The notes: a model not told the origin generated them from the sequence alone. DNA of 64,000 nucleotides from an uncultured Gemmatimonadota bacterium (GCA_964626665.1 CAZVGK010000006.1:51393-115392), one strand, 5' to 3'. Shown: positions 2 to 18,786, counted from the first letter of the stretch. Translations and numbers: made by a program.

Positions 2-1342
2 CAGCAGGGTTTGCAGGTTTTAGGCTCCCGAAAGACCTGCCGGGAGGGTGGGCTGCTCTATAATGTGCTGGGAAATGCTTACTTCTACCGAGGAGAGCCC
101 AAGAAGGCGGAGAAGTTCTACCAGAAGAGCCTGGGGATAAGGGAGAAATTGGGGAATCAGAGAGCCGTCTCTTCATCGCTGAACAACTTGGGGAACATCT
201 ACTTCATGCAGGGGGAACACAGCAAGGCTGTGGACTACCATACCCGCAGTATGGAGATATCCGAGAGGATCGGAAACATTATGGGTGTCTCCGGTTCCCA
301 CATCAACCTGGGCAATATCTACCAGGTAGGGGGGCAACCCTCTAAGGCATTAAGCTACTTTCAGAAATCCTTGGAGATTAACCAGCGGGTGGGGGATAAA
401 AATGGGCAGGCCTCCTGTATGAACAATATCGCTGGCATCCGCATAGACAAAGGTGACCTCCAGGGGGCAGCCGACCTCTTCCAGTCCAGTCAAGAGATCT
501 TTCGCCAGATAGGGAATAAGTTCGGTGAGGCAATGTGTTACGCTAACTTAGGGATAACCTTCTTTGCTCGAGGGAAGTATTCCCAGGCCTTAAGCTTCTA
601 TCGGAAGGGTCTGAAGATGGCTCGGTTGCTGAGTAACTCCTCACTGCAGGCTACGTCTCACAACAACTTGGGAGAGGCCTACCTCGCCTTAGGGGAGGTG
701 AAGGGAGCGAGGAAGGAGATAGAGGAGGTTATCTCTATAACGGAGAAAAGTGGAGAGAAGCGGCTCTTGGCGGAGGCTTACAATCTTTTGGGCAAGGCCG
801 AGCTGACCACGGGAGAAATCTCGCGGGCGGAGGCTGCCCAGAGGAAGGCCTTGGAATACTCCACCCTGTTGGGGGATGAGCGGTTCCGGGGGCGGGCCTT
901 TGTCGATTTGGGTCACATCGCCCTGAGGCAGGAAAAGGACGAGGAGGCCCTGGGTTATTGTGAGGAGGCCCTTTCCATTGCGGAAAGGCAGGGAGCCAAG
1001 GAGCTTTTGGCCGAGGCTTTCCTGCTCAGGGGCCAGGTGGAGGGGCGGCGCAGTTGGGGCAATAGATCGAGGGCCCTGAAATTCTTGGAGAGGACGATCA
1101 ATCTCGCCCAGGAGATGGGGGTCCCTGAGCCGAACTGGAGAGGCCACTACCAGATGGGCAAGCTTTATCAGGAAGGCAAGTTCCTCCAAAAGGCGCTGCG
1201 CCACTATGCAGAGTGTGTGTCCATATTCAAGTCCTCCTGCTCTCAGATCAAAGTGGAGAGGCTTAAGTGGAGCTATCTTGAGGAGAAGGGGAGGCGGGAG
1301 GTCTTCGAGGCGATAAAAAAGCTAAAGAAAATCGCTCCATAG
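2..1342 (+). CDS. TPR-repeat protein, C-terminal part (5' end lies outside the window)
   Basis: The frame is open from the window edge. Tandem TPR-like units (NNLGNIY...A..Y..SL.I) run throughout. Confidence 0.85.
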   Translation, partial: QQGLQVLGSRKTCREGGLLYNVLGNAYFYRGEPKKAEKFYQKSLGIREKLGNQRAVSSSLNNLGNIYFMQGEHSKAVDYHTRSMEISERIGNIMGVSGSHINLGNIYQVGGQPSKALSYFQKSLEINQRVGDKNGQASCMNNIAGIRIDKGDLQGAADLFQSSQEIFRQIGNKFGEAMCYANLGITFFARGKYSQALSFYRKGLKMARLLSNSSLQATSHNNLGEAYLALGEVKGARKEIEEVISITEKSGEKRLLAEAYNLLGKAELTTGEISRAEAAQRKALEYSTLLGDERFRGRAFVDLGHIALRQEKDEEALGYCEEALSIAERQGAKELLAEAFLLRGQVEGRRSWGNRSRALKFLERTINLAQEMGVPEPNWRGHYQMGKLYQEGKFLQKALRHYAECVSIFKSSCSQIKVERLKWSYLEEKGRREVFEAIKKLKKIAP

Positions 1343-4300: not shown

Positions 4301-4748
4301 CTTTGCCTTTACCCAGCACCAACTGAAGCTTAGTAAGGTTGAGGTGGTTAAGGAGCTAAATCTGGAAGTCCCTGCACTGAAAGGGAATGCCAACCAACTG
4401 GAGCAGGTCTTCACCAACCTGATTATTAATGCTGGTAAGGCAATGCCCCAGGGGGGAAAGCTCCAGATTAAATCGGGTTATGATGTAAAGAGTTCAACGG
4501 TCAAAGTTGAATTTGCCGATACCGGATGTGGCATCCCCCAGGAGAACCTGAATAAGATATTTGACCCCTTCTTTACTACGAGGAAGACTGGAGAGGGAAC
4601 AGGACTGGGCCTCTCGGTGAGCTATGGCATTGTGAAGAACCATCAGGGGAAAATAGAGGTGAAGAGTAAGGAGGGGGAGGGGACCAGGTTTGTTATCAGC
4701 CTGCCGGCTGGCGAAGCCTCGCCTCAAAGTGAAGGACCCACTGGGTGA
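1368..4748 (+). CDS. Multi-sensor histidine kinase (GAF-PAS-GAF-GAF-GAF-HisKA-HATPase)
   Basis: GAF motifs (AAIAIENARLY), a PAS segment, H-box AGVAHELNNP, N-box QVFTNLIINA, G-boxes DTGCGI and GTGLGL; RBS GAGGAG upstream. Confidence 0.93.
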   Translation: MGRRKSRTIEGFFREVDGQIKELEGRLGPFQGEPLGEGGVNLKKMLEISRAMNSTLELAHLLSYVMDKVVEITRAERGFLILVGKGGNLEFKVARNLSREEIASAEFEISHSIIGEVVKTVQPMLIENAFEDGRFAQQVSVRDLELRSIMCVPLQVKGKLTGVVYVDNRSVVGQFDQDDLDLLILFASQAAIAIENARLYEDLHRSQEEIKRWNRELERKVEEKTREIRTSEEKYRALVMNALAGLYIFQDSKFKFVNPEIESITGYSREEIIGKSFWEVVAPHDRKLVKERGLRREGGEKVESHYGFKIVRKDGELRDVEALASRIKYEGKPAVQGWIRDITEEKWAREQTKRGYNRVKELTSIAGSILRERDLKKILDQIATAVKGFAGFGRVLISLMDRDFNGRLVSFVGLTKREVEEVRGKSMTPEERRMVFSDRWLLGGSYYIPHDQMPFQDRGIPSRAPQGGFLGWHPNDLLLIPLRGTKGRFIGYISVDEPDDGRVPTAESLVPVELFAKLASVAIENANLFSELQRRLQELNTLNRIGEVLSSTLELDELLPEVYKQASRVMDTTNFYIALYDEGLDEIEFVFTVEGERQLTDPPVKRWGGKGMTEYIIRNRAPLLVKRDVDRWQKEQGIEMIGKPASSWLGVPIIAGEKVLGVIGVQSHTQENSYDEGHLELLSTIASQAAVAMENARLFDRYEMKVNQLSTILEVSRSLSLTLSFDEVLSEIASDVQGLLKGDLSVLYVLEEGDILRPKAVMGNYAQEIIAHSLQVGVGLAGSVAKKGSAQILNDLQRAKRDRLPIKSPLTQSLLSVPLLSKGKILGALTVARLGEGRKFAREELELCEIFASQAAGVLEDAQLFDEINRAYEQLKLTQQQLVQAGKLAAVGELAAGVAHELNNPIGGILGYAQYALEKLNRRTTLTDQELESLHKYLDYIQQGSQRVKGIVENLLRFSRADSSGFGSLDINKVLENSFAFTQHQLKLSKVEVVKELNLEVPALKGNANQLEQVFTNLIINAGKAMPQGGKLQIKSGYDVKSSTVKVEFADTGCGIPQENLNKIFDPFFTTRKTGEGTGLGLSVSYGIVKNHQGKIEVKSKEGEGTRFVISLPAGEASPQSEGPTG

Positions 4749-5074: not shown

Positions 5075-5386
5075 ATGAGAGTTGACTTACAGAAGATAAA
5101 ATCTGGGATGAAACTTAGCGAGCCGGTCTTAAACCAACAAGGAGGCCTTTTACTCAAGGAAGGAGAGGTAATTACCCCTCAGCATCTTATGCTCTTTAAA
5201 ACCTGGGGAGTTGGACAGTTTGAGGTCGAGGGTGAGTCTAAAAAGGAGGAGGGGACAAAGAAAGGAGAGGAGATAGAGAAGGAGGTTGAGGCCATATTCT
5301 CGGCCTCTGGTGGGGGAGAGATTATGGAGGAGATCAAGAGGGTAGCTAAAAAGATGAGGGCAGCTAAGGAGAGGAGTAGCCAATGA
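5075..5386 (+). CDS. Small hypothetical protein resembling the N-terminal module of HD-GYP/HDOD-associated proteins
   Basis: Motif KSGMKLSEPVLNQQGGLLLKEG; purine-rich RBS; ATGA overlap with the HDOD gene. Confidence 0.7.
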   Translation: MRVDLQKIKSGMKLSEPVLNQQGGLLLKEGEVITPQHLMLFKTWGVGQFEVEGESKKEEGTKKGEEIEKEVEAIFSASGGGEIMEEIKRVAKKMRAAKERSSQ

Positions 5387-6231
5387 ATGTAGGCCAATTG
5401 CATGGAAGGATAGAAAGAACCAGTGACCTTCCCACCCTCCCGGTCATCTACCAGAAGGTTAAGGATCTAGTGGATAACCCGCAGACTTCCGCATCAGATC
5501 TGGGCAAGGTGATTACCCAAGATCAGGTTCTTACCACGAAGCTCTTGAGGTTGGTCAACTCTTCATTTTATGGATCCCCCCAGAGGATAACCACGGTAAA
5601 CCGGGCCATCACTATAATAGGATTTAGGGCCTTAAAGGCTATGGTTCTGGCTACCTCTATCCTGAGGGCCTTCTCGCTGGATGGGAATGACGGCTTTCAG
5701 GGCGAGGGGTTTTGGCAGCACTCTATCGGGTGTGCGGTCGGGGCTAAGATAATTGGGAAGTATATAAAGTATGAGGAGCCTGATGAGCTCTTTGTGGCTG
5801 GTCTCATCCATGATATTGGGAAAGTGGTGGAGTATGTTGCCTTTGGTGCAGAACTAAAGGAGATACTGAGGATTACAGAAAAGGAGGGCATTTTCATCCG
5901 GGAGGCCGAGAACAGGGTTTTGGGGGCGGATCACGCCCAGATAGGGAGCATATTTATCCGCAAATGGAAGTTACCTCCCCAATTAATCGAGCCAATTACC
6001 TACCATCATACCCCCCAGGAGGCCAAGGAATTCTCCCGGGAGGTGGGAGTGGTTCACCTCTCTGATATACTTATCAAGGCCTTGGGGTTGGGATGGGCGG
6101 GTGATTACAAAGTCCCTCCCTTGGATTTAGGAGTGTGGGATAACTTGGGTTTGGCAATATCGGCCATAGAGCCTATTATGGAGGAGATGGAAGAGGGGTT
6201 CTGGGATGGGATCTCCATCTTAAAGGAATAG
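5383..6231 (+). CDS. HDOD domain protein
   Basis: LPTLP, DQVLTTKLLRLVNS, FWQHS, GLIHDIGK, DHAQIG..WKLP motifs. Confidence 0.92.
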   Translation: MNVGQLHGRIERTSDLPTLPVIYQKVKDLVDNPQTSASDLGKVITQDQVLTTKLLRLVNSSFYGSPQRITTVNRAITIIGFRALKAMVLATSILRAFSLDGNDGFQGEGFWQHSIGCAVGAKIIGKYIKYEEPDELFVAGLIHDIGKVVEYVAFGAELKEILRITEKEGIFIREAENRVLGADHAQIGSIFIRKWKLPPQLIEPITYHHTPQEAKEFSREVGVVHLSDILIKALGLGWAGDYKVPPLDLGVWDNLGLAISAIEPIMEEMEEGFWDGISILKE

Positions 6232-6688: not shown

Positions 6689-8050
6689 ATGTCGATCAAC
6701 CAGAAAGAAGGGTTGGAAGGAGAGCTAAATAGGGCTCAAAAGAGGATAACTCAGCTTGAGTTCACCAATCAATCCTTTCTTCAATCCCTTAGTCGATTGG
6801 AGTCCGCAGGGGAGTTCCAGGAGAGGGTCGAGTTATCCATAGGCCTGGATCAACTGGCAGAGATACTCCTGGAGGAGGCCGGAGAACTGATCAAGCTAGA
6901 GGTCTCTGCCCTGTTCCTGGTTGAGCCTCATTCTCAGGCCTTCAAACTGAAGTTATCCCGGCCTACGGATTCCGCCCCTCTCTCTCAGGAGGAGATCAAA
7001 CAACAGATAGAGACCGGTGTATTCTCCTGGGTGTTAAATCAGAGAAGATTGGCCGTAATCCCTTCCTTAGCCTTGGATGAGAGGAAGGGAGAGCTGATTA
7101 TGGTCCCCCTCACCACAGCCAAGCGAACCATTGGGATGTTACTCGCCCTTGTCGGGGTGGCCGTTGATTTCATCCCCCAGGGGTCGCTTAAGCTCCTCTC
7201 AGTTATGGTCAAACAGGCATCCTTTGCCATTGAGAACAGTCAGTTGTATCAGGGCCTGAAGGATTATAGCCTTAATTTGGAGAAGATGGTGGAGGAGAGG
7301 ACGCAAAAGCTAAAGGAGACCCAATCCCAGCTCTTCCGGTCCTCCAAACTGGCTGCGGTGGGACAGTCGGCGGCAGGAGTGGCTCATGAGCTGAACAATC
7401 CCTTAGGAGGTATTTTGGGGTATACCCAGTGGCTTCTGGAAAAACTGGAGGATGTCAACCTTCAAGGAGAGAATACTCACCAGATTGGGGAATGGTTGCA
7501 ATTTATCGAAAAGGAGACCAAGAGGTGCAAGAAGATAGTAGGGGGGCTGCTCGGATTCTCCCGTAGCGCGGAGATGGATTTTAAACCCTTAGATATCAAT
7601 CAGATTCTTCAGGAGACCCTTCTTTTCTCCGAGCCAAGCCTGAAGCAAAAGAGGATTAAACTGGTAAAAGGGCTTGACCTCTCTCTTCCTCAGATTAACG
7701 GGAATGCCGAACAACTTCAACAGGTTTTTACCAACCTGATACTTAATGCCCAAAAGGCGATGCCCCAAAGGGGAGTTCTTAAGATAAACTCTGAATTTGA
7801 TCCCCAGAAAAGGGAGATACGGATAAGTTTTCGGGACACTGGGTGTGGCATACCGAATGAAATCCAAAGTAGGATATTTGAACCCTTCTTCACCACCAGC
7901 AAACCGGGTGAGGGAACGGGTTTAGGCCTCTCGGTGAGCTATGGAATAGTAAAGGGTCATGGTGGACATATAAAGGTGAAAAGCAAGGTGGGAAAGGGTT
8001 CAACATTTACTGTCTTCTTGCCAGGGGGGGGGAACAATGTCCATGATTGA
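6689..8050 (+). CDS. GAF-domain sensor histidine kinase
   Basis: H-box AGVAHELNNP, QVFTNLILNA, DTGCGI, GTGLGL; RBS AAGGAG. Confidence 0.92.
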   Translation: MSINQKEGLEGELNRAQKRITQLEFTNQSFLQSLSRLESAGEFQERVELSIGLDQLAEILLEEAGELIKLEVSALFLVEPHSQAFKLKLSRPTDSAPLSQEEIKQQIETGVFSWVLNQRRLAVIPSLALDERKGELIMVPLTTAKRTIGMLLALVGVAVDFIPQGSLKLLSVMVKQASFAIENSQLYQGLKDYSLNLEKMVEERTQKLKETQSQLFRSSKLAAVGQSAAGVAHELNNPLGGILGYTQWLLEKLEDVNLQGENTHQIGEWLQFIEKETKRCKKIVGGLLGFSRSAEMDFKPLDINQILQETLLFSEPSLKQKRIKLVKGLDLSLPQINGNAEQLQQVFTNLILNAQKAMPQRGVLKINSEFDPQKREIRISFRDTGCGIPNEIQSRIFEPFFTTSKPGEGTGLGLSVSYGIVKGHGGHIKVKSKVGKGSTFTVFLPGGGNNVHD

Positions 8051-9026
8051 AGGGAACGCCAAGCTACAGGCCGAGACATTGGTCGAAAGTATGAAGGATG
8101 AGGAGATAAACTCCATCTTAGTGGTTGATGATGAGGAGATAATGAGGAGTTTCCTGCAGGATGTCCTTACTGGCGAAGGTTACCAGGTGGATATTGTTCC
8201 CACTGGGGAGGAGGCAGTGGATAAAGTTGGCGAGAAGAGATACGATTTGGTGATCACCGATATAAAGATGTCGGGGATTGATGGAATTCAGGTCTTGAGC
8301 CAGGTGAAGGAGATCAACCCGGCCACTGAGGTAGTGGTGATGACCGGATACGCCTCCTTAGAGTCTGCAGTGGAGTCTATGAAGATGGGGGCTGCCGATT
8401 ATATTACTAAACCCTTCAACATTGATCAGATAAGGATTGTGGTGGCCAAGACCTTAGAGAGGAAGAAGTTGCGGCAGAAGGCCGAAGATGAGGAGTTCTA
8501 CAAGCATCTTTCGCGCACAGACGGGCTGACAAACCTCTATAACCAACGTTTTATGCATCAACTGTTGCAGTCTGAGATCTCGCGGGCCAAGAGGTTTCGC
8601 CAATCCCTTTGCCTTCTTATGCTTGATATAGACAACTTCAAGGTATACAACGATACAAACGGTCACCTGGCTGGCGATCAGGCCCTCAAGCAATTGGCCT
8701 GGATATTGAACAAATCCGTGCGCAGTTGTGATATGGTAGCCAGATATGGAGGTGAGGAATTTGTGGTTATTGCTCCCCAGACCGACCTGGAGGGGGGGGA
8801 GATACTGGCTACGAGGTTGAATCGGTTGGTGAGGGAGACCAAATTCGCCAAGGAGGAGGTCTTCCCCCAGGGGAGATTGACGGTAAGCATTGGTGTGGCC
8901 TGTTTCCCTGAGCAAGCTACAGACGAACGGAGCCTCATAGAGAGATCAGACCAAGCCCTTTATCAGGCCAAATCCAAGGGTAGGGACCAGGTTTGTCTCT
9001 ATGGAGGGGCTAATGAAAAGGGCTAA
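8037..9026 (+). CDS. Response-regulator diguanylate cyclase (REC-GGDEF)
   Basis: REC motifs (VVDDE, ITDIKM, ITKPF) plus DGLTNLYN, DIDNFK, RYGGEEF. The start may instead be the ATG at 8091. Confidence 0.92.
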   Translation: MSMIEGNAKLQAETLVESMKDEEINSILVVDDEEIMRSFLQDVLTGEGYQVDIVPTGEEAVDKVGEKRYDLVITDIKMSGIDGIQVLSQVKEINPATEVVVMTGYASLESAVESMKMGAADYITKPFNIDQIRIVVAKTLERKKLRQKAEDEEFYKHLSRTDGLTNLYNQRFMHQLLQSEISRAKRFRQSLCLLMLDIDNFKVYNDTNGHLAGDQALKQLAWILNKSVRSCDMVARYGGEEFVVIAPQTDLEGGEILATRLNRLVRETKFAKEEVFPQGRLTVSIGVACFPEQATDERSLIERSDQALYQAKSKGRDQVCLYGGANEKG

Positions 9027-9372
9027 GGTTCTCGTAGTTGACGATGAGCCGGTGATCAGGAGCCTCCTCTCCGATGTCCTCCGCGAGGAAGGCCTGGATG
9101 TGGTGGTGGCCAAGGGGGGAGAGGAAGGGATAAGTAGGGCGAGAAAAGACAATTTTGATTTAATCTTTACCGATATTCATATGCCCGATGTAGATGGGAT
9201 AGAGGTGCTTAAGGTGGTCAAGGGGATGAACAGATCGACTGAAGTTATCCTTATGAACAGCTATCCGGATGGCCTGGAAGAAAAGGGTTTAAACTTAGGG
9301 GCCTATGGCTGTCTGCACAAACCCTTCGAGCTAAGGGGGTTGCGGTCTATCTTAGAGGATCTGTTGCCATGA
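9013..9372 (+). CDS. Single-domain response regulator
   Basis: VVDDE, FTDIHMP, HKPF; GGAGG RBS just before the ATG at 9013. Confidence 0.88.
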   Translation: MKRAKVLVVDDEPVIRSLLSDVLREEGLDVVVAKGGEEGISRARKDNFDLIFTDIHMPDVDGIEVLKVVKGMNRSTEVILMNSYPDGLEEKGLNLGAYGCLHKPFELRGLRSILEDLLP

Positions 9373-10727
9373 GCAAGGTTCTGGTAGTAGACGACGAGGA
9401 TGTGATTAGGGAGATGGTCAGGGAGGTCCTGGTGGGTGAGGGCTATGAGACTGTCACGGCGGAGGATGGTCGATCTGCCCTCAACAGGATCAAAGATGGG
9501 GGGATTAACCTGCTGTTGACCGACATTAAGATGCCAGAGATGGGCGGAATGAAGTTGATCAAGGAGGCCAGGAAGTTGGACCCCGATCTGCTCTCCATAA
9601 TAATGACTGGATATGGCACCTTGGAAACGGCAAGGAAGGCGATGAGGGAAGGGGCTTATGATTACCTTCTCAAGCCATTTGATCTGGTCGATTTGCGGAT
9701 GGCCGTCTCCAGAGCCTTTGAGAGAAAGAGGCTAGATGAGGAGAATGCGCGCTTAAAACAGCTAACTGGCCTTTTTGAGGTTAGCCAGAAGTTAAGCGAA
9801 ACCATAGAGAGGAATACACTCTCGGAGCTTCTCCTCCGCTCCGCCCTGGCCCAGACCCAGGCGGAACGGGGGGAAATATGGCTGGTGGATAGGGAGGGGA
9901 GGATGCAGGAGGTGGCCACCCACGGTGATGGTCTGGATCTAAAGGGGGTGGTGGGTGAGGTGGTCCAGGGGGGTGAACCCCTCTTCATGGCCGCAGATGA
10001 GGGGGAGCTAATCCTTCTCCCCTTAAAGGCCAGCAGGAAGGTGTTGGGGGTGATCGGTCTCCAGAAGGGCAGTGGCGGAAAGGGTTTTAGCCCGGGAGAT
10101 CGAGAGCTACTCAACCTTTTGGCCAACCAGGGAGCTATATCCTTAGAGAACAGCCACCTCTTCTCCAATCTTCAGGATGCCTATTTTTCCATTATAAAGT
10201 CCTTAAGCCTTCTCCTCGAGGTCAATGACCCCTATACAAAGGGGCACTCCCAGCGGGTAACCGAGCTCTGTCTGAAGTTGAGCAGAAAGCTTGGTTTGAA
10301 GGAGGGCGATGTGCAGCTTTTAAAGCAGGCTGCCCCCCTGCACGATATAGGGAAGATAGCGATTAGTAATGGCATACTCCACAAGAAAGGGAAACTGAGC
10401 CCCAATGATTGGAAGGCCATCAGATCACATCCCATTGTGGGGGATGAGGTCCTAGCCCCCATAGGTTTTTTGCAACAAGCCAGGAAGATCGTCCGTCATC
10501 ATCACGAGAGGATGGATGGAAAAGGTTATCCAGATGGGTTAACTGGAGAGAAGCTTGACCTGCCCACCAGGATAATCATCGTTGCCGATGCCTACGATGC
10601 AATGGCCTCAGATCGTCCTTATCGGAACAGGCTCTCCCGGAAGAGGATCATCCAGGAATTTAGGGAAGGCGAGGGAATCCAGTTTGACCCCCAGATCGTC
10701 CATAGCCTTTTGGAGCTGTTAAATTGA
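9369..10727 (+). CDS. REC-GAF-HD-GYP cyclic di-GMP phosphodiesterase
   Basis: REC N-terminus, DPYTKGHS, HDIGK, HHHERMDGKGYP; ATGA overlap with the previous gene. Confidence 0.92.
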   Translation: MSKVLVVDDEDVIREMVREVLVGEGYETVTAEDGRSALNRIKDGGINLLLTDIKMPEMGGMKLIKEARKLDPDLLSIIMTGYGTLETARKAMREGAYDYLLKPFDLVDLRMAVSRAFERKRLDEENARLKQLTGLFEVSQKLSETIERNTLSELLLRSALAQTQAERGEIWLVDREGRMQEVATHGDGLDLKGVVGEVVQGGEPLFMAADEGELILLPLKASRKVLGVIGLQKGSGGKGFSPGDRELLNLLANQGAISLENSHLFSNLQDAYFSIIKSLSLLLEVNDPYTKGHSQRVTELCLKLSRKLGLKEGDVQLLKQAAPLHDIGKIAISNGILHKKGKLSPNDWKAIRSHPIVGDEVLAPIGFLQQARKIVRHHHERMDGKGYPDGLTGEKLDLPTRIIIVADAYDAMASDRPYRNRLSRKRIIQEFREGEGIQFDPQIVHSLLELLN

Positions 10728-12076
10728 GTTTCCTTCTGATTGCCGGGGAGAGGGAGAACCCCACCATGAAGGTGGTGCGGAAGATGGTTTCCCAGAGGGG
10801 GGGAGGAGAGGTCTGGGCTCAAACCCCACAGGAGGCCCTGCAGCTAGCCGATCAGAACTCTCCTCAACTTGCCTTGGTGGATCTCGATTATTTGGGGGAG
10901 AAGTCCTTTGAGCTGATCAGAAGGCTTAAGTCCAAGAACCAGAGACTAAGGGTGGCACTAACCTCATTCCAGTCCTCCTTAGAGGATGCCATGCGGGCTG
11001 TTCGGGCGGGGGCTGAGGATTTTATCCCCCTTCCTCAGAAGATGGATAAGCTGGAGTCATTTTTGGAGAAACGTCTCAATGTAGAGGTAAACCCTTATAG
11101 CTTGGAGGGAAAGGGATTTGAATGGATAATCGGGGAGAGCTCAAAGCTAAAGAAGGTTCTGGAAATAGCCAGGAAGGTCAGCAGAAGTTCAGCTCGCACA
11201 GTCCTCATCAGGGGGGAGACGGGGACAGGAAAGGGACTTTTGTGCCGGGCGATTCACTACTCTAGCCCAAGGGCCGATAAGCCCTTTATAGAGGTGAACT
11301 GCACGGCCATCCCAGAGACGCTTTTGGAGGCAGAGCTCTTTGGCCACGAGAAGGGGGCCTATACCGATGCCAAGGAGAAAAAGCTGGGCCTCTTAGAGTT
11401 GGCTAACCTTGGGACTATCTTTCTCGATGAGGTGGGGAATATGAGCCTCAACACCCAGGTTAAGCTCCTCAATGCCATAGAGGAGAGAAAGTTTAAGAGA
11501 TTGGGGGGAACAGAGGATATTAGGGTTGATATGAGGGTAATTACTGCCACCAATAAGGATTTGGAATCTGCGGTGAAAGATGGGAACTTCCGTGAAGATC
11601 TCTACTACAGGCTCAATGTGGTCTCCCTCCTGCTTCCTCCCTTAAGGGAGAGGGAAGAGGATGTGATCCTCTTGGCCCATCACTTCATTCAAAAATACAA
11701 CCGGGAGTTTAACCGTCGGGTCAGGGGGCTTACCCCAGAGGGGGAGAGGTTCTTGCTGGGTTACAACTGGCCAGGCAATGTGAGGGAATTGAAGAACTTC
11801 ATCGAGAGGGCAGTCCTCCTGGGGGAGGGGGACTTCATTGGCCCAGGGACAGGGAGCATACCCGATGGTCACTACTCCCTTAAGAGGGCCGATGCGGGAG
11901 AAGATGACCTTGCCGGCCTAGTGATAGGCCTGCCCGAGATGGAAAAGGGGCTTATCCAGAGGGCACTTAGGTTGACTAAGGGGAACAAGAGCCAGACGGC
12001 CCGTCTCCTGGATATATCTCGCCCTCGCCTGCTGCGTAAGATAGAGAAATACTCCCTCCAGGAAGATCACCTGTAA
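10724..12076 (+). CDS. Sigma54-dependent NtrC/Fis-family activator with a degenerate REC domain
   Basis: Walker A GETGTGKG, ELFGHEKGAYTDA, FLDEVG, FREDLYYRL, WPGNVREL, C-terminal Fis-type HTH; TTG start overlapping the upstream stop. Confidence 0.92.
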   Translation: MSFLLIAGERENPTMKVVRKMVSQRGGGEVWAQTPQEALQLADQNSPQLALVDLDYLGEKSFELIRRLKSKNQRLRVALTSFQSSLEDAMRAVRAGAEDFIPLPQKMDKLESFLEKRLNVEVNPYSLEGKGFEWIIGESSKLKKVLEIARKVSRSSARTVLIRGETGTGKGLLCRAIHYSSPRADKPFIEVNCTAIPETLLEAELFGHEKGAYTDAKEKKLGLLELANLGTIFLDEVGNMSLNTQVKLLNAIEERKFKRLGGTEDIRVDMRVITATNKDLESAVKDGNFREDLYYRLNVVSLLLPPLREREEDVILLAHHFIQKYNREFNRRVRGLTPEGERFLLGYNWPGNVRELKNFIERAVLLGEGDFIGPGTGSIPDGHYSLKRADAGEDDLAGLVIGLPEMEKGLIQRALRLTKGNKSQTARLLDISRPRLLRKIEKYSLQEDHL

Positions 12077-12340
12077 CAAAATAGTTCACCACTGATACTA
12101 CTCAGATCACATTATAGTTTGCACATTGGTATTTTAAGTGTCATTGCGAGGCTTGTCCCGAGCGCAAGCGAGGGAACTGGCCGAAGCAATCTCATAGTCT
12201 AAACCTCCATTAGGCGTTTTGGATTGCTTCGCTGCGTTCCCAATAAAAGTGTGCTGTCAGGAGTTACCTCCTGACAGCTCCTGAAAATTTCGATGAGCCG
12301 TCAGAACCCCGATTCTGACGGCAAAAGGTGGTTAGCGATC

Positions 12341-12409
12341 TGTAACAAAATAGACCATTAATTCGGCTATTTGGCAGTCTGATCATTTTGGTATACCAAA
12401 ATGTTACAG
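12341..12409. promoter_or_regulatory. Candidate upstream activator site for the sigma54 promoter
   Basis: Perfect 20-bp palindrome CATTTTGGTATACCAAAATG (12384-12403). TGTAACAAAATAG at 12341 is repeated exactly at 12072. Confidence 0.55.
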
Positions 12410-12488: not shown

Positions 12489-12505
12489 CTGGCACGCCAC
12501 TTGCA
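12489..12505 (+). promoter_or_regulatory. Sigma54 (-24/-12) promoter
   Basis: CTGGCAC-GCCAC-TTGCA matches TGGCAC-N5-TTGCW, about 40 nt upstream of the ATG at 12547. Confidence 0.85.
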
Positions 12506-12546
12506 AGTAGTAAAGATGGAAAAGGAAAATTCACAGGAGGTGCCCC

Positions 12547-13107
12547 ATGCTTAAAGATCACAAATGGGAATTGGCCCTTATGGGTGGGTTCCTGCTTCTC
12601 ACCCTTCTCTTCTACACCGGTTGTGGGCAGAAGGGAAGCCCTACTGCCCCTGAGGTCCCCAGGCTCCCTCAATCTGGTATTCGAATTCTAAGGTTGGGAG
12701 GTGCTGATTCTGTGGGCGTAGTTTGTAAAGGGGAGCCACTCTATGCGGAGGAATTCATTGAGGCGGATGTAGGGGGTGAGGTTGAACTCGAGGGAGAATA
12801 TGTGGATCACGAGGTGGAGGTTCCTGCCGGTGCCCTGAGCGAAGATACCCTTATTTCTGTCGCCTGTCCGGATGCTCAATTGGCCGTGGTTAACTTTGGC
12901 CCTTGTGGTATCTCCTTCAATGTGCCAGTAAGTGTCTCGCTTTACTGGAGGGATGTGGAGGATGTAGGTGGCGACTTAGGGATTTATTGGTATGATGAGG
13001 AGCAGGGAAAGTGGGTAGAAATCCTGGCCAGGATCGAAGTTATCGGAAATGATGTCGATGCCGAGTTTGAACTTAATCACTTCTCCCGCTATGCACTGGC
13101 GGATTAG
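12547..13107 (+). CDS. Lipoprotein with a ZU5-like domain and C-terminal HFS motif
   Basis: RBS AGGAGG; hydrophobic signal with lipobox-like YTGC; VPAGAL..I, FGPCGISFNVPV, IYWYDE..W; ends in NHFSRYALAD. Confidence 0.75.
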   Translation: MLKDHKWELALMGGFLLLTLLFYTGCGQKGSPTAPEVPRLPQSGIRILRLGGADSVGVVCKGEPLYAEEFIEADVGGEVELEGEYVDHEVEVPAGALSEDTLISVACPDAQLAVVNFGPCGISFNVPVSVSLYWRDVEDVGGDLGIYWYDEEQGKWVEILARIEVIGNDVDAEFELNHFSRYALAD

Positions 13108-13135
13108 TGATTAAAGGGCTTGGCCATTTCCCGAA

Positions 13136-13174
13136 AAGAAGAGAAGCCACGGGTCAACCGTGGCTTCTCTTCTT
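13136..13174 (+). terminator. Intrinsic terminator-like hairpin after the lipoprotein gene
   Basis: 17-bp perfect stem AAGAAGAGAAGCCACGG / CCGTGGCTTCTCTTCTT with a GTCAA loop. Confidence 0.7.
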
Positions 13175-13200
13175 GGGTTCTACCGTTAAATCATCAGAAA

Positions 13201-14982
13201 GTGAAGGAAATAAATACGGCAAGTTTAAAAGATGGCCTTCTCCGCCTCAAGGAGAAGGGGGATAAAGCCCAGGGAATCTCAGACTATAGGAAGGCTTCTG
13301 AATATTATACCTCTGCCCTCAAGGCTCTAAAGAGGGTGGAGGGAGTGAACTTGAGGGAGTTGGAGTTTGACCTTTTGCTCAAGCTGGGAAAGGTCAACGA
13401 CCTTTTGGGGGATGCCCATAAGGCAATGGAAAATTTCCAGCTCTCCCTCGGGTTGGGGGAATTCGTCTATGGTCAACCTCTCTATCCTGAGCTTTTGCGG
13501 CAGATGGGGCGACTCTATGCTCGCAAGGGGGAGAGAGAAAAGGCGATCAGGTTCCTCTCCCGGAGCATTAGGGCGTTTAAACAGAGAGGAAACCTGAAGG
13601 GAATGGCTGACGGCTATCTCTCTCTGGGGAACATATCCTTTGAGCGCGGAGATTGGAAGGAGGTTGTGGAGTTTTTCAATCTTGCCCTCCAGATAGGGGA
13701 GAGGATGGATGATTTCAAACTTATGGCCCATATATATAACAACTTTGGTGCTATGTTCAACATCCAAGGGGATTGGGAGGGAGCCATAACCTATTATCGG
13801 AAAAGCGGTGGATTATACCGGAGAATTAAGGATGATTTCGGTTTAGCCCGCACTTTCCACAATATAGGTATGACCTTCGTTGACCAGACGGACTACAGGA
13901 AGGCGGACTACTATTTCAATCAGAGTCTGAGGATATCTGAGGCCAAAGGGATAGCCAGTTTAATGGCCACCACCTATCTGAGTAAGGCAGAGGTCTTTGT
14001 CAAATTCTCTCGTTTGAAGGAGGCCAGAAAGTTCTGCGATAAGGCAACAAAGCACTTTGAGAAACTGGAGGATGAGTTAGGGGTAGCTGAGGCAGAAAAA
14101 TTGAAAGGGGCAATATATAGAGAGGGGAAGAAATGGAGTCTGGCTGAAGAACATCTGAGGAGGAGTGCGGAGATAAATCGTCGGGCCCAATGCCCTTTGG
14201 GTCTGGCCGAGGCCTATCGGGAGTTAGCCCTTATTTACAGGCGAAAAGGAGAAAACCGAAAGGCCTTAAGCCTTTTGGGGGAGACTATAGAACTCTTCAG
14301 GGCTCTGGGGGCAGAAAAGGATTTAGAAGAGGTCAGTAAAACGGTCTCTCAGATAGAGGAGCTCTATCTGAGGATAGTCCAGTCTATGGGTGCTCGGGTG
14401 GAGCAAAAAGATCCCTATACCCTTGGCCATTCCGCCAGGGTGGCTCAATACTCCCTGCGGATAGCCCAAAAACTTGGCCTCTCCTGGGAGAAGGTGAAGG
14501 GTATTCTCACCGCTGCCTACTTGCATGACCTGGGGAAAATACATATAAAGGCCAGCATACTGAAGAAACCAGCAAAGTTAACCCCGGAAGAGTATGAGGA
14601 GATAAAGCTTCATCCGGCCAAGGCCTTGGAGGTTTTGCAGGGAGTTAAGTTCCCCTGGGGGGTAGAGGAGATTATCCTCCACCATCATGAAAGGTGGGAT
14701 GGAAGAGGCTATCCCGAGGGACTCAAAGGTGAAGAGATTCCCTTAGGGGGAAGGATAATAGCTGTAGCCGACTCCTTTGATGCGATGACCACCACCCGCC
14801 CTTACAGGCCTGCCTTTAGTAAGAGGGAGGCCTTAGATGAGATAGAGGAAAAGATGGGGATAATGTATGATCCTAAGGTAGCCAAAGCTTTTTTGGAGGC
14901 GATGGAGGAAGAAGGGGAGGGAAAGGTAGACTATACATTTGATTCCGTTTGGGGGGACTCCCGTCAACGGCTTTCCCCATAG
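13201..14982 (+). CDS. TPR-repeat HD-GYP phosphodiesterase
   Basis: About 9 TPR-like units followed by DPYTLGHS, HDLGK, HHHERWDGRGYP. Start uncertain; the GTG at 13201 was chosen because 13120 precedes the terminator hairpin. Confidence 0.88.
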   Translation: MKEINTASLKDGLLRLKEKGDKAQGISDYRKASEYYTSALKALKRVEGVNLRELEFDLLLKLGKVNDLLGDAHKAMENFQLSLGLGEFVYGQPLYPELLRQMGRLYARKGEREKAIRFLSRSIRAFKQRGNLKGMADGYLSLGNISFERGDWKEVVEFFNLALQIGERMDDFKLMAHIYNNFGAMFNIQGDWEGAITYYRKSGGLYRRIKDDFGLARTFHNIGMTFVDQTDYRKADYYFNQSLRISEAKGIASLMATTYLSKAEVFVKFSRLKEARKFCDKATKHFEKLEDELGVAEAEKLKGAIYREGKKWSLAEEHLRRSAEINRRAQCPLGLAEAYRELALIYRRKGENRKALSLLGETIELFRALGAEKDLEEVSKTVSQIEELYLRIVQSMGARVEQKDPYTLGHSARVAQYSLRIAQKLGLSWEKVKGILTAAYLHDLGKIHIKASILKKPAKLTPEEYEEIKLHPAKALEVLQGVKFPWGVEEIILHHHERWDGRGYPEGLKGEEIPLGGRIIAVADSFDAMTTTRPYRPAFSKREALDEIEEKMGIMYDPKVAKAFLEAMEEEGEGKVDYTFDSVWGDSRQRLSP

Positions 14983-15376
14983 ATTTTGGGAATGTTTTTC
15001 TCTGTGCCGTCAGGGCTCTGCCTTGACGGAATAAATCGAGGTGGCAGAACCCCGATTCTGCCACCGTCAGATTAGGGCATCTGAGGGCTCTGAATTTCCA
15101 TTTTCTATTTTCCCATTTATAATTCCCAATTCATAATTGCTTTTTTCCGTGAGATTCCGAGGTGAACTGTTACGACTTGGTGCAGACCGAGAGAAATCTT
15201 GTCCTGCCATTTTATACTGATTTTTCCCTTGATATTAGATGGTTGTTTGCTTAAATTGTTTTTATAGGTAAAGAAAGTTCAAAGTCATCCAGAGGAATAT
15301 ATCTATGAATAGGCCAGGTATAAGTAGTTGGGCGAAATGCTGAATTGAGAGGCAATAAACACTTGGGAGGCACAGT

Positions 15377-15595
15377 ATGATCCGTATGGTTGAAGTCATA
15401 TATGAAGATGAGGTATTAAAACCTCTTACGCCCATAGGGGGGCTTAGGAAACATGAGAGAACCTGGGTAATTCTCTGTCCTCGGACTAAGAAGAAAGCTT
15501 TACATGAACTGGTTGGAACGCTAACTCATGAAGAAGCCGAGGCAATGCAGAAACTCATTGAGGAGGAGTTTGAGAAAATTGAGGGCGAATGGTAG
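15377..15595 (+). CDS. Antitoxin, AF2212/DUF104-like
   Basis: N-terminal IYEDEVLKPL motif; GGAGG RBS; overlaps the PIN gene. Confidence 0.75.
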   Translation: MIRMVEVIYEDEVLKPLTPIGGLRKHERTWVILCPRTKKKALHELVGTLTHEEAEAMQKLIEEEFEKIEGEW

Positions 15596-15989
15596 ATTAG
15601 CTGTTGATACCAATGCTGTGATCGCATATCGAGAAGGCATTCCTGAAGTCTGCAGTTTAATAGAAAGAGCAGATACGATCCTTTTGCCTGTTATTGTCTT
15701 GGGCGAGTTGCTCTATGGTGCAGCCAATAGTGCTCGCCCCCAAGAAAATGAACAAGCCGTTCGTAAATTTTTGGATCAATCCGTTCTTACACCTATAGAT
15801 GAGAGTATAGCTGCTCACTATGCTGCTGTTCGTTCAAAACTCAAAAAGATAGGTCGCCCTATCCCAGAGAACGATATTTGGGTTGCTGCGACATGCTTGG
15901 AACTTGGTGTGACTCTCCTTAGCCGAGATACTCATTTTAATTATATTGATGATTTGCCAGTGATTAATTGGATGTCTCGGAAATTCTAA
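15579..15989 (+). CDS. vapC: VapC/PIN-domain toxin
   Basis: VDTN, LGELLYGA, GRPIPENDIWVAA, SRDTHF; TTG start after AGGAGGAG. Confidence 0.88.
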   Translation: MRANGRLAVDTNAVIAYREGIPEVCSLIERADTILLPVIVLGELLYGAANSARPQENEQAVRKFLDQSVLTPIDESIAAHYAAVRSKLKKIGRPIPENDIWVAATCLELGVTLLSRDTHFNYIDDLPVINWMSRKF

Positions 15990-16289
15990 AATTTCCGAGA
16001 CAGTCATCAGGGAGTTGCGCTGAGTTGAACCATAAGGGTACATTCCACTGTGGGGGCGCTGTGCCGTCAGGGCTCTACCCTGACGAATAACCAAGAAGGC
16101 AGAACTGAGTTCTGCTCCCTTTTCATATTCCGTCATTGCGAGAAGCGTAGCGACCTGTCTGCGTGCCTGCCTGAGCGAGAACGCTCGCAGTCAGGCAACG
16201 CACAGGCAGGTGAGGCAATCTGGTGGCCTCAACCCCCATTCAGTTGTGCCGTCAGGGCTCTGCTTTGACGGAGTAAAAAGGAGGATCTT

Positions 16290-16919
16290 ATGATGAATAA
16301 ATCAATTCGCGGTCACTGGATTTTGTTTTTGACCGGCATCATTCTTCTTGGAAGTTCTTTCATTCAAGCCCAGCAATCCACTCAGGATGTCCAACTTAAA
16401 AAAGAGCTAGAAAAGGCCAGAGTCAAGAAGGTGATTGATGGGGATACAGTGGTTTTGACTGATGGAAGAAAAGTGAGACTCATCGGAATAGATACTCCTG
16501 AGCTGAGCAATCCAAGCAAACCGGTGGAATTCTACGCTGAGGAGGCAAAGAAGTTTACGGAAGAGCAATGTGAGAACAAGCTGGTGACTCTTGAGTATGG
16601 GAATTCCAGAAAAGACAGATACAATCGGACCCTGGCCTACATTTATCTGCCAAGTGGGGAGATGTTGAATGAGAAGCTGCTTTCTGAGGGGTATGCTGTA
16701 GTTTATACCCGTTTCCCTTTCAAATACATAGACCATTTTAGGGAGCTTGAGCAGAAAGCCCGCGAGGAGGAGAGGGGGTTCTGGGGGACATATTTGGGCA
16801 ATTCCGATGTCCGAAATCTTGTCCACGATTATATGCTGCTGGATGGAAAGGGTAGAGTGTTACTGCGTCGCTACTTAGCCAATTTACTGGGCTCACATGC
16901 TCGCAAACTGGAGGATTAA
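16290..16919 (+). CDS. Secreted thermonuclease (SNase family)
   Basis: Signal peptide; VIDGDT, VRLIGIDTPE, DRYNRTLAY, AREEERGFW. Confidence 0.9.
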   Translation: MMNKSIRGHWILFLTGIILLGSSFIQAQQSTQDVQLKKELEKARVKKVIDGDTVVLTDGRKVRLIGIDTPELSNPSKPVEFYAEEAKKFTEEQCENKLVTLEYGNSRKDRYNRTLAYIYLPSGEMLNEKLLSEGYAVVYTRFPFKYIDHFRELEQKAREEERGFWGTYLGNSDVRNLVHDYMLLDGKGRVLLRRYLANLLGSHARKLED

Positions 16920-17435: not shown

Positions 17436-17933
17436 GCTTGAATCATAAGGTCACTTCCCCCGAGATGGCAGAACTCTGTTCTGCCATCTTTCCGTATTCC
17501 GTCATTGCGAGGAGCGCAGTGACGAAGCAATCTGGTGGCCTCAGCCCCATTCAGTTGTGCCGTCAGGGCTCTGCCGCGATGGAGTGAACCTCCCCTTACC
17601 CACAGGTGGGTATCCAAAACATTCTCTTACCCCTTGGTGGGGGAGGACTAAGGAAAGGGTGAAAACCATATCCGTTTTCCCCCTCCCCTTTTCTCACCAG
17701 GCGAGAGGGAACTATAAGGATGTCATTCCTTCCCCTTCACCGAAGAGGGGATTCTAAATGGTTTTTATAGAGTGAGGTGGCAGAACCTCAGTTCTGCCAC
17801 TTTTTTGTTCCAGATGGCAGCCCTACCCGCACAATGGCGGAAATAGTTGTTGACTCCCCCCTTTTGATTTGGTATTTTCCCTGCAGATGAAACTGCTAAA
17901 CAATAACGAGATAATATGTAGGCAAAGGTAGAT

Positions 17934-18164
17934 GTGATGAAAGTAAAATTCTCACGCCATGCAAAGAGAAGAGCCAAACTTTATAAAATTCCAGAATCAA
18001 CAATTTTAGACATTTTGGAGAGCATAAAACTGCCCCAAGGTAAACATGAAATCACAAAAAGTGTTGAAGGATTTAAGTATCCGCTAAAAATTGTTATCTC
18101 TGTTGGCGGCGATATAATATCAATAATAACAACTTATCCTTTAAAGAAAGGGAGAAAGGTATGA
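17934..18164 (+). CDS. DUF4258-like putative toxin
   Basis: KFSRHAKRR N-terminus and IITTYP C-terminus; overlaps the DUF2283 gene. Confidence 0.7.
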   Translation: MMKVKFSRHAKRRAKLYKIPESTILDILESIKLPQGKHEITKSVEGFKYPLKIVISVGGDIISIITTYPLKKGRKV

Positions 18165-18388
18165 AAGTATATTATGATAAAGAAGTAGATGCTCTGTATA
18201 TAAAATTTGGGGACAATGTACCTGAAGGAGTTATTGAAATTTCGGAAGGGGTTAATTTAGACACGACTTCTGAAGACAAAATAGTCGGCATAGAGATTCT
18301 TGATGCCTCTAAAAAGATGGATATTGAAACAATACTTTCTTATACACTTGAATTAGACCAAAAATTATTAACTCAGAAGATAGCTTAA
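18161..18388 (+). CDS. DUF2283 putative antitoxin
   Basis: MKVYYDKEVDALYI...GIEILDAS. Confidence 0.85.
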   Translation: MKVYYDKEVDALYIKFGDNVPEGVIEISEGVNLDTTSEDKIVGIEILDASKKMDIETILSYTLELDQKLLTQKIA

Positions 18389-18439: not shown

Positions 18440-18786
18440 TTATAAGTGGGGGGGGGGAAACCAGGAAGGCATGGTGGGGACGTCCATAAGGTTATGAAAA
18501 TTGCTGTTTCACAGGGTTGACCCCTTTCCCTCCTAAGGCGGATATACCCCCTTTTTTTTCGAGCTGGCAGAATCCCAGTTCTGCCAGCTTTTTTTTAGAC
18601 TTCCGCAATCCATTAAGCATTCGCCAAATCTCCGCTGTTTTATCCAAAACCTGCTTATTGGCTGAGCCGTCAGATCTCCTGATCTGGCGACCTCAAAATT
18701 TCCAATTTCAATTTCCACCTGATCACCTGATTTCCTGATCCTCTAATCCCTATTCCCTGTCCCCCGGGAACTGCTACAAAAATTCC

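Follow-up and report, generated by a model that had tools for sequence, protein, structure and literature searches.

What does a small lipoprotein do when its gene lies behind a sigma-54 promoter, with the gene of a sigma-54 activator before it and the gene of a tetratricopeptide repeat (TPR) protein fused to an HD-GYP domain after it? The locus was found in a 64,000-nucleotide stretch of DNA from an uncultured Gemmatimonadota bacterium (GCA_964626665.1 CAZVGK010000006.1:51393-115392), here called the window; the source genome, G000, is 3.17 Mb in size and 99.65% complete. An original prediction, made from the window sequence, held that the lipoprotein may cut itself at an HFS motif and so expose or release the heptapeptide SRYALAD, which could tune the TPR-HD-GYP enzyme. 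We computed the fold and anatomy of the lipoprotein and its gene linkage in other genomes. The linkage of lipoprotein, TPR and activator genes across unrelated bacteria is clearly real, and the lipoprotein and the TPR protein are very likely functional partners. Overall, they may form a conserved two- or three-gene module that reaches from the envelope to the cytoplasm, with the lipoprotein generating a signal and the TPR protein receiving it, a reading to which we give somewhat less than even credence. The features of the locus are:

10724-12076, plus strand: sigma-54 activator (enhancer-binding protein, EBP), 450 aa; Pfam Sigma54_activat E 1.1e-67, AAA_lid_14, HTH_8 and a weak Response_reg match
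12340-12409, no strand: candidate upstream activating sequence (UAS), a palindrome with flanking inverted repeats
12490-12505, plus strand: predicted sigma-54 promoter, exact consensus, -24 TGGCAC and -12 TTGCA
12536-12541, plus strand: ribosome-binding site AGGAGG, 5 nt before the ATG, as read from the sequence; kept in G002, a genome of the same genus
12547-13107, plus strand: lipoprotein gene, 186 aa, with signal peptide, lipobox, Pro-rich tether, ZU5/GAIN-like domain and stop
12547-12624, plus strand: lipoprotein signal peptide and lipobox F-Y-T-G-C26, from the model helix at residues 6-24 and the conservation of C26
12736-13104, plus strand: ZU5/GAIN (MAIN)-type beta-sandwich, residues 64-186, from structural and profile matches
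13078-13086, plus strand: H178-F179-S180, with the predicted cut between F and S, in the turn between strands 169-178 and 181-185 (DSSP on the model)
13084-13104, plus strand: SRYALAD, the last beta-strand, in the place of the GAIN Stachel strand
13137-13173, plus strand: stem-loop of 16-17 bp, from RNA folding
13201-14982, plus strand: TPR-HD-GYP protein, 593 aa; Pfam TPR_12 and others, HD_5

Fold and predicted cut site of the lipoprotein

The single small lipoprotein gene of the original prediction is an open reading frame (ORF) whose product has an N-terminal hydrophobic segment, a lipobox (...FYTG, followed by C26), a proline-rich tether and one domain. C26 is conserved at 90% or more in 84 aligned relatives, and the signal-peptide region has a weak match to LptM that is confined to the lipobox region. 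Neither a Pfam family, ZU5 included, nor an NCBIfam model matched the lipoprotein. An AlphaFold2 model (mean pLDDT 88, pTM 0.74) is all-beta, with pLDDT above 94 over residues 64-186. When the model was compared with solved structures by VIA-align, the ZU5 domain of ankyrin-B scored Z 11.6 (root-mean-square deviation 2.7 A, 116 residues aligned) and that of UNC5b Z 8.8, and the GAIN domains of BAI3, CD97 and BAI2 scored Z 8.9 (120 aligned), 8.6 and 8.3; the model range up to residue 186 aligned with the ends of the GAIN domains. Foldseek also returned a ZU5 domain, with E 1.4e-4 and a probability of 1.00. A profile of the 84 relatives, searched against the sequences in the PDB, matched the ZU5 domains of ankyrin-1 (E 5.6e-5) and ZO-1 (E 0.006), in the N-terminal half only, and Pfam ZU5 matched 31 of the 84 relatives at E<=0.1, with a best E of 7.6e-6. 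The ESM Atlas groups the lipoprotein with clusters of hypothetical proteins in which the share that carries ZU5 reaches one half. Profile searches and predicted fold thus agree on the ZU5-like character that had been proposed, and the comparison of the structure predicted for 12547-13107 with ZU5 and GAIN folds gave a match over residues 64-186, which we regard with high confidence as a ZU5/GAIN-type beta-sandwich on the strength of the model.

The HFS motif is at 13078-13086 and the protein ends in SRYALAD, both as originally read. To count conservation at the motif, 158 domain instances, taken from the 152 best cluster representatives, were aligned with a hidden Markov model. The alignment has the His in 154 of the 158, and at the position of S180 it has S (139 instances), T (13), C (4) or G (2); Ala and Asn, the commonest neutral replacements of Ser, never occur there. 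Among proteins shorter than 260 aa with residues at those columns, all 126 have His, a hydrophobic residue, and S, T or C, and the distance from the nucleophile to the end of these 126 small relatives has its mode at 7-8 residues. Such a pattern is what one would expect for a catalytic nucleophile. In the MAIN domains of bacterial surface proteins the cut between F and S was located by Edman sequencing; an S-to-A change abolishes it, an S-to-T change restores it, and the fragments remain associated, cleavage having been demonstrated for domains from Firmicutes (Brogan & Rudner, bioRxiv 10.64898/2026.05.12.724683). Because the fold, the conservation of the motif and the experiments on homologous bacterial domains point the same way, we infer that the lipoprotein domain is a member of the ZU5/GAIN/MAIN autoproteolytic class and probably does cut itself. 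The sole possible cleavage product in the small proteins is a short free strand, which here would be SRYALAD.

The family is large. At E<=1e-3 phmmer found at least 510 representatives of 50%-identity clusters, mostly lipoproteins of 170-230 aa, and 117 of 401 sampled genomes had a profile match to the domain, which occurs as a small protein of its own and also within giant surface proteins. Large relatives found by phmmer, such as P0062 (E 1.3e-9) and P0090 (E 9.9e-9), have ectodomains, a Pfam ZU5 match (55 bits) and SLH anchors. Even if the strand is no signal, this is a large, unannotated family of lipoproteins, sigma-54-regulated, with at least 510 sequence clusters. Within the genus of the source genome the small lipoprotein is present in two of three genomes. 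The lipoproteins of G000 and G002 share 37% identity, whereas for six neighbouring gene products the figure is 68-80%, but HFSRYALA is the same in both lipoproteins. Family matches in the phylum's other genomes are limited to proteins of about 730-770 aa with an internal ZU5/MAIN-type domain; in four genomes it is an exported protein of roughly 740 aa whose internal domain has HFSTYAVLLD. On contig C56 (L082, 1780-3972) the source genome also has a gene for an exported protein of 730 aa; its N-terminus resembles an M23 peptidase, and its internal domain of the ZU5/MAIN type (…VWHFSTYAVLLD…) is followed by about 100 residues.

Linkage to TPR proteins and sigma-54 control

The survey of gene neighbourhoods covered 41 small homologues at 38 loci of 27 other genomes, the window being excluded, with annotation by Pfam and phmmer/hmmsearch. 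Of the 39 homologues with a downstream neighbour, 14 were directly followed on the same strand by a TPR gene, compared with 5 TPR genes among 282 other ORFs of the same loci, and of the 37 with an upstream neighbour, 10 were directly preceded by a sigma-54 activator gene, compared with 1 among 282. These counts bear out that the lipoprotein is linked across genomes, as supposed, to sigma-54 activators and to TPR proteins, the latter with HD-GYP or without it. The two neighbours occur together in 6 genomes from different GTDB families if G002 is counted. The full triad of activator, lipoprotein and TPR genes was found at 10 loci in 8 genomes, and those other than G002 belong to other GTDB families. 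The adjacency was found in 9 genomes of 9 different GTDB families, in rearranged surroundings. Triads and pairs were arranged as follows:

G002: triad; same genus, fully syntenic
G194: triad
G056: triad, twice
G121: triad; TPR with HD-GYP, as in the window
G197: triad, twice
G028: triad, twice
G071: triad; one small gene between
G307: pair without activator, lipoprotein then TPR-HD-GYP, three times (L051, L058, L059)
G231: pair variant; lipoprotein, TPR, hybrid kinase, SBP_bac_5
G342: pair variant; lipoprotein, small gene, Ser/Thr kinase-TPR, GAF kinase
G345: pair variant; cyclase-AAA_16-TPR, then lipoprotein
G227: pair variant; lipoprotein facing a GAF kinase and a kinase-TPR gene

The outputs carried by the TPR partners differ: HD_5 in L044, L051 and L059, Pkinase in L053 and L060, and cyclase-AAA_16 in L054, and in eight triads the TPR partner, beside the EBP, has no output domain. 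Lipoprotein and TPR genes are often separated by only 6-17 nt, or overlap. None of 15 TPR partners has an N-terminal hydrophobic segment by inspection, nor does the TPR-HD-GYP protein of the window, which places them in the cytoplasm, where an HD-GYP enzyme must be. Sigma-54-like promoters, defined as sites with at most one mismatch and intact GG and GC dinucleotides, precede about 12 of the 41 homologues, four of them exact; the background rate predicts about 0.6. When 42 lipoprotein domains were placed in a maximum-likelihood tree by a quick method, 21 of 39 inner branches were left open, so that a single origin of the triad lipoproteins is neither supported nor rejected by the tree. The lipoprotein is genetically tied to cytoplasmic TPR sensors and sigma-54 control in many unrelated bacteria, and the partner genes make the function of the lipoprotein family directly testable.

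At three triad loci, L042 (2841-4277), L043 (3074-4942) and L044 (3-3311), an exported subtilase (Peptidase_S8) is encoded no more than 5 kb from the module, and at two loci SBP_bac_5/oligopeptide ABC transporter genes lie within three genes of it, namely L047 (8320-11125) and L052 (3488-5212); the window has neither subtilase nor SBP_bac_5/Opp genes near the module. The lipoproteins of one GTDB family have a second context (L060 in G227, L061 in G062, L065 in G374), in which a rubrerythrin gene is followed by one or two lipoprotein genes. These lipoproteins have longer tails, HFS[RK]Y[LIV]IA.GPP[PT]..., and their genes face that of a GAF histidine kinase, with a Ser/Thr kinase-TPR gene in addition in L060.

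In the window, the consensus sigma-54 promoter that had been proposed before the lipoprotein gene is the exact site TGGCACGCCACTTGCA at 12490-12505, 41 nt upstream of the ATG at 12547. It is the sole exact match to TGGCAC-N5-TTGCW in the 64-kb window, where shuffles gave a mean of 0.04, and one of 10 in the 3.17-Mb genome, where the reversed control pattern gave 0. The genome encodes rpoN, and the site is kept in G002 as TGGCACGGGACTTGCA. The -24 GG and -12 GC with correct spacing, rpoN and an adjacent EBP, which together make up the feature set of a sigma-54 unit, are all present. Between the activator and lipoprotein genes are 470 nt, in which a perfect 20-bp palindrome (CATTTTGGTA followed by TACCAAAATG) occupies 12384-12403, its end 87 nt upstream of the -24 element, and is flanked by the inverted sequences CTGTAACA (12340-12347) and TGTTACAG (12402-12409). 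The block from 12340 to 12409 is kept in G002 while the flanking DNA has diverged, and it is a plausible candidate for the site at which the activator binds.

The gene before the spacer is the expected sigma-54 activator (ORF 10724-12076), 79% identical to its G002 orthologue, with a degenerate receiver-like N-terminus, an AAA+ sigma-54 interaction domain and a Fis-type helix-turn-helix. Its loop reads GAYTDA, not GAFTGA, and its activity as an EBP is assumed. Among the EBPs of the triads the loop is GA[FY]TDA in 10 of 13, and the receiver-like N-termini are degenerate and lack the usual acidic pocket. The EBPs with GA[FY]TDA (the window's 10724-12076 and those in L010, L043, L044, L047, L055, L056, L069, L075 and L079) suggest, by these sequence traits, a distinct EBP subfamily that would be controlled by a protein partner and not by phosphorylation.

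A family of short palindromic intergenic repeats is found downstream, at 14992-15073, 16060-16154, 16212-16284, 17460-17588, 17774-17809 and 18561-18596. Their cores resemble GGTGGCAGAAC...GTTCTGCCACC and TGTGCCGTCAGGGCTCTGC.TTGACGG, several small genes that lie downstream of the TPR-HD-GYP gene are bordered by them, and similar hairpins lie in the spacer between activator and lipoprotein genes (12253-12278 and 12297-12322). The repeats look like elements of the REP (repetitive extragenic palindromic) or MITE (miniature inverted-repeat transposable element) type.

The 17-bp hairpin reported after the lipoprotein gene is a stem of 16 bp at 13137-13173, or 17 bp with one more A-U pair; the 101-nt stretch around it folds with -42.2 kcal/mol (z -5.4). 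It lacks a T-run, and so was not listed in a terminator scan, although its G002 counterpart has one; between the lipoprotein and TPR genes it probably serves as a terminator or attenuator. The longest ORF of the next gene starts at TTG 13120, in the hairpin region, and the likely start is GTG 13201, past the hairpin. As proposed, this gene joins about nine TPRs to an HD-GYP domain: the TPR part has some 9-10 repeats, modelled (pLDDT 91) as a regular superhelix of 20 helices, and HD_5 matches with E 2.5e-42. The motifs ...YLHDLGK..., HHERWDGRGYP and ...HHHERWDGRGYP... stand in the translation, and the HD-GYP domain, intact by its HD and HHExxDGxGYP motifs, is a predicted cyclic di-GMP (c-di-GMP) phosphodiesterase. 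The protein is 79% identical to its orthologue in G002. A homologue search with the TPR region found generic TPR proteins only. The best structural matches of the TPR model are the TPRs of LGN/Pins, which hold a peptide extended in the inner groove.

A possible route from the lipoprotein to the TPR protein

In the mechanism that we favour, the lipoprotein would be exported and lipidated under sigma-54/EBP control and would then cut itself between F179 and S180; the cut body would stay anchored by its lipid and would hold the SRYALAD strand non-covalently. The lipoprotein would be the signal-generating half, and the cytoplasmic TPR protein encoded directly downstream the receiving half, fused to HD-GYP here and elsewhere to a Ser/Thr kinase or a cyclase-STAND protein, or bare beside a sigma-54 activator. 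The direction of information flow and the peptide route are what we infer. The lipoprotein is favoured as the source of the signal because the TPR sensor is constant beside it while the outputs vary, and that the lipoprotein, in whatever form, is an input to the TPR protein seems to us only slightly less than an even prospect. By the most likely route the strand would be lost when the body unfolds or is degraded in the envelope, the peptide would be imported, and the TPR groove would bind it. Binding would alter c-di-GMP turnover, and the GA[FY]TDA-type activator would feed back on the sigma-54 promoter. Consistent with the peptide route are the fast-evolving body beside a constant HFSRYALA (37% identity between G000 and G002), the Opp-type genes at two loci, and the OPT and CstA transporters of the source genome, which are candidates for uptake. 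Nevertheless, it is unlikely that the freed heptapeptide is the ligand of the TPR protein. Equally unlikely is the broader proposal of peptide signalling in a diderm, in which the lipoprotein would keep its last strand, SRYALAD, in reserve as a ligand; if the lipoprotein were damaged, unfolded or proteolysed in the envelope, the heptapeptide would come free and be taken up, and TPR sensors in the cytoplasm would read it.

Several observations weigh against this mechanism. The lipoprotein is extracytoplasmic and the TPR protein cytoplasmic, so a carrier step would be required. As the original prediction had noted, no peptide importer is encoded in the cluster; SBP_bac_5 (Opp/Dpp-type) is absent from the 99.65%-complete genome, although 11 of 14 reference genomes were positive in a control, and a PTR2 transporter was not found in the source genome. 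The strand cut off in MAIN and GAIN domains remains firmly held (10.64898/2026.05.12.724683). Force could not pass across the cut, as the tail has no anchor. The tail motif [RKQ]-[YFW]-[AGS]-[LIV] is common to the whole domain family, including the large surface proteins and lipoproteins with no TPR neighbour, so the fold accounts for its conservation, which does not speak for a specific ligand; as a sequence pattern it seems to fit a structural strand better than a specific pheromone. Of the proposed self-cleavage and peptide signal, then, the former is supported by the ZU5/GAIN fold, the HFS turn and S, T or C in 156 of 158 domains, and the latter is weakened by a tail whose conservation the fold explains. 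The TPR protein was also tried as a member of the RRNPP family and rejected, with 14.6 bits (E 0.024) for RNPP_C against a cut-off of 26.5 and 17.2 bits for AimR against 70. The small lipoprotein was not found in the third genome of the genus (90% complete) or in four other genomes of the phylum, and at least 15 of the 38 loci have neither a TPR nor an activator neighbour. Finally, the Fisher p values for the linkage, about 1e-10 for TPR and 1e-9 for the activator, are overstated since paralogues and related genomes are not independent.

Might the lipoprotein instead be an output of the system? It would then be an envelope or surface product regulated by sigma-54, self-cutting or not, with no information passing from tail to TPR, and the TPR protein would be a cytoplasmic regulator, for example an anti-activator or adaptor that acts on the degenerate receiver of the EBP, or an input for c-di-GMP. 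Sigma-54 commonly controls components of the cell exterior (PMC3162934), and many lipoproteins of the family have a sigma-54-like promoter with no TPR or EBP gene nearby, e.g., L045, L046, L057 and L064. The separate compartments of lipoprotein and TPR protein accord with such an output, the fold accounts for the family-wide conservation of the tail, surface exposure fits a body that evolves fast (37% identity), and the degenerate receiver-like N-termini of the EBPs, with GA[FY]TDA in 10 of 13, suggest control by a partner such as the bare TPR protein. It is harder to reconcile with the lipoprotein-TPR pairs that have no EBP at all (L051, L058 and L059 in G307, and L052), with the unrelated outputs of the TPR proteins (HD-GYP, kinase, cyclase), among which the constant element is the TPR sensor beside the lipoprotein, and with the near-zero intergenic gaps, which suggest coupled synthesis. 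We consider an output role somewhat doubtful, if still a serious contender.

The compartment problem would also vanish if the TPR protein bound the lipoprotein precursor before export, at its C-terminus or signal-peptide region, and were freed by export to act on the HD-GYP domain or the EBP, so that the module would report export flux or the capacity of the envelope. Such a switch would suit the tight coupling of the genes and the conserved tail at the extreme C-terminus, a common TPR target; carboxylate-clamp TPRs and the IpgC/MxiE type of logic are precedents for the binding of C-termini and secretion substrates by TPRs, and in LGN/Pins, the nearest TPR structures, the inner groove takes up peptides in extended form. 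It leaves the strictly conserved H and S/T/C without a function, however, and Sec substrates are normally exported fast; no lipoprotein precedent was found, and on balance the switch is improbable. The conserved S/T/C nucleophile would also suit a transfer reaction, in which the ester formed at HFS would be resolved by another nucleophile, such as a cell-wall amine, so that the body became covalently attached, the heptapeptide were a by-product, and the TPR linkage were regulatory only. The C-terminal product is too small for an obvious structural role, and a protein tethered to the membrane at its N-terminus and attached at its C-terminus would bridge envelope layers. But MAIN domains hydrolyse in vitro without an acceptor (10.64898/2026.05.12.724683), the neighbourhoods contain no pointer to cell-wall chemistry, and acyl transfer is the least probable explanation that we considered. 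Scarcely more credible is the view that HFS is an uncleaved structural turn and that the adjacency of TPR and EBP genes is inherited synteny without function. The window lipoprotein has no Pfam match, and the ZU5 domains that it matches best in structure, those of ankyrin, UNC5 and ZO-1, are not known to be autoproteolytic; these non-cleaving domains lack HFS, whereas the lipoprotein family keeps H and S/T/C almost throughout, and synteny by inheritance is at odds with an adjacency that recurs in nine genomes of nine GTDB families with rearranged surroundings.

Should the broader proposal of peptide signalling in a diderm be true, it would be a bacterial counterpart both of the Stachel found in adhesion-type G-protein-coupled receptors and of the RRNPP pheromones, and a possible evolutionary root of tethered-agonist signalling. 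If the strand is the signal, this would be the first peptide-type TPR signalling system outside Gram-positive bacteria, a new input into c-di-GMP and sigma-54 networks, and a simple model for the origin of GAIN-type tethered agonists.

Known systems and the surroundings of the module

The domain class and its chemistry at the F-S bond of HFS are known already. In known ZU5, GAIN and MAIN proteins the device serves to shed an ectodomain or to uncover a tethered agonist; here it is reduced to a bare lipoprotein with a seven-residue strand. Like the lipoprotein, the MAIN domain is an exported bacterial beta-sandwich with a conserved H-F-S turn, and the link between them runs through the large relatives of the lipoprotein, with their ectodomains, ZU5-type domain and SLH anchors, so that the lipoprotein is compared by architecture, via those relatives. 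MAIN proteins, with an average of 158 kDa, consist of a signal peptide, adhesion or enzyme ectodomains, the MAIN domain and, at the C-terminus, a wall anchor (10.64898/2026.05.12.724683). The MAIN cut releases the ectodomain; in contrast, the lipoprotein has an N-terminal lipid and no ectodomain, and its chain ends seven residues after the cut. A signalling role for the C-terminal fragment of MAIN proteins is stated in the preprint to be not known, and the terms lipoprotein, TPR, ZU5 and Gemmatimonad do not occur in its main text, supplements apart (10.64898/2026.05.12.724683).

Eukaryotic ZU5 domains give the best fold (Z 11.6) and profile (E 5.6e-5) matches to the lipoprotein, and autoproteolytic versions occur in PIDD1 and in the FIIND of NLRP1 and CARD8. 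PIDD is cut at HFS. Eukaryotic ZU5 proteins are cytosolic and multidomain, whereas the lipoprotein is exported and has a single domain. In FIIND proteins the strand after the cut is described as docked until the N-terminal part is degraded, and the same is proposed for the strand of the lipoprotein. The autoproteolytic role of ZU5 in PIDD and predicted bacterial ZU5 autopeptidases were reported by Zhang et al. in 2012 (PMC3482391); the bacterial domains described there are found in polymorphic toxins and large surface proteins, unlinked to TPR or sigma-54 genes, and not as stand-alone lipoproteins. PIDD1, which served as the model in the original prediction, is a less apt one than the GAIN and MAIN domains and the Stachel strand. 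GAIN domains are cut at His-Leu/Ile-Ser/Thr, and the strand after the cut, with the consensus TxFxxLM, is the signalling element (PMC13197933). The likeness to the lipoprotein lies in the fold (Z 8.3-8.9) and in the strand, TxFxxLM being compared with S-R-Y-A-L-A-D. The Stachel, however, is tethered to a seven-transmembrane receptor and is exposed by force on a large ectodomain, while SRYALAD is untethered and its candidate receptor is a separate cytoplasmic TPR protein.

With the RRNPP systems of Firmicutes (Rap/Phr, NprR, PlcR, PrgX, AimR) the module shares a cytoplasmic TPR gene that adjoins the gene of an exported precursor, variable outputs, and expression that is plausibly auto-regulated. 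RRNPP systems are described as Gram-positive (PMC10075063, PMC9765709). Their precursor is a short propeptide cut by exoproteases, whereas here it is a folded 186-aa lipoprotein with a self-cleavage site in a diderm host, and the source genome has OPT and CstA but no SBP_bac_5 protein for the Opp route of RRNPP systems. The Rap-like receptor that had been suggested is not an RRNPP protein by family models, and RapF ranks only 48th among the structural matches of the TPR model. The SEAL domain of RsgI offers another likeness, as a bacterial extracytoplasmic domain whose fragments stay associated after self-cleavage and which signals to transcription; it differs in its SEA-like fold, in a membrane-spanning anti-sigma factor with intramembrane proteolysis, and in its dependence on SigI and not sigma-54 (PMC10556640, PMC10328401). 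The literature that we searched, the main text of the MAIN preprint included, yielded no description of the minimal N-anchored architecture, the pairing with a TPR sensor or the sigma-54 control, and no publication was found that describes the module, in line with the earlier statement that no circuit of this kind was known for this architecture.

The lipoprotein gene is preceded in the window by a long signalling cluster on the plus strand, identified from ORFs and Pfam, which ends with the sigma-54 activator gene and otherwise contains:

2-1342, plus strand: TPR protein
1368-4748, plus strand: GAF-PAS histidine kinase
5383-6231, plus strand: HDOD protein
6689-8050, plus strand: GAF histidine kinase
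8037-9026, plus strand: receiver-GGDEF protein
9001-9372, plus strand: single receiver
9369-10727, plus strand: receiver-GAF-HD-GYP protein

Between the large GAF-PAS kinase and HDOD genes is an ORF of 103 aa (5075-5386) with no Pfam family and a weak NCBIfam similarity (E 0.0024) to the C-terminal end of a c-di-GMP phosphodiesterase response regulator; its position is kept in G002 by an ORF of 99 aa (L010, 145-444). Neither a subtilase nor another evident processing protease is encoded by 24 further ORFs of the window. Downstream of the TPR-HD-GYP gene are two overlapping, toxin-antitoxin-like gene pairs, one within 15377-15989 that encodes an AF2212-like protein (72 aa) and a PIN-domain protein (153 aa), and one within 17934-18388 that encodes an unassigned 76-aa protein and a DUF2283 protein (75 aa), and between the pairs is a gene for a secreted SNase-type nuclease (16290-16919). 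Farther downstream, on the minus strand at 38559-41843, is the gene for a Type ISP restriction-modification enzyme of 1093 aa with N6_Mtase and the specificity domain Type_ISP_C (E 8e-92).

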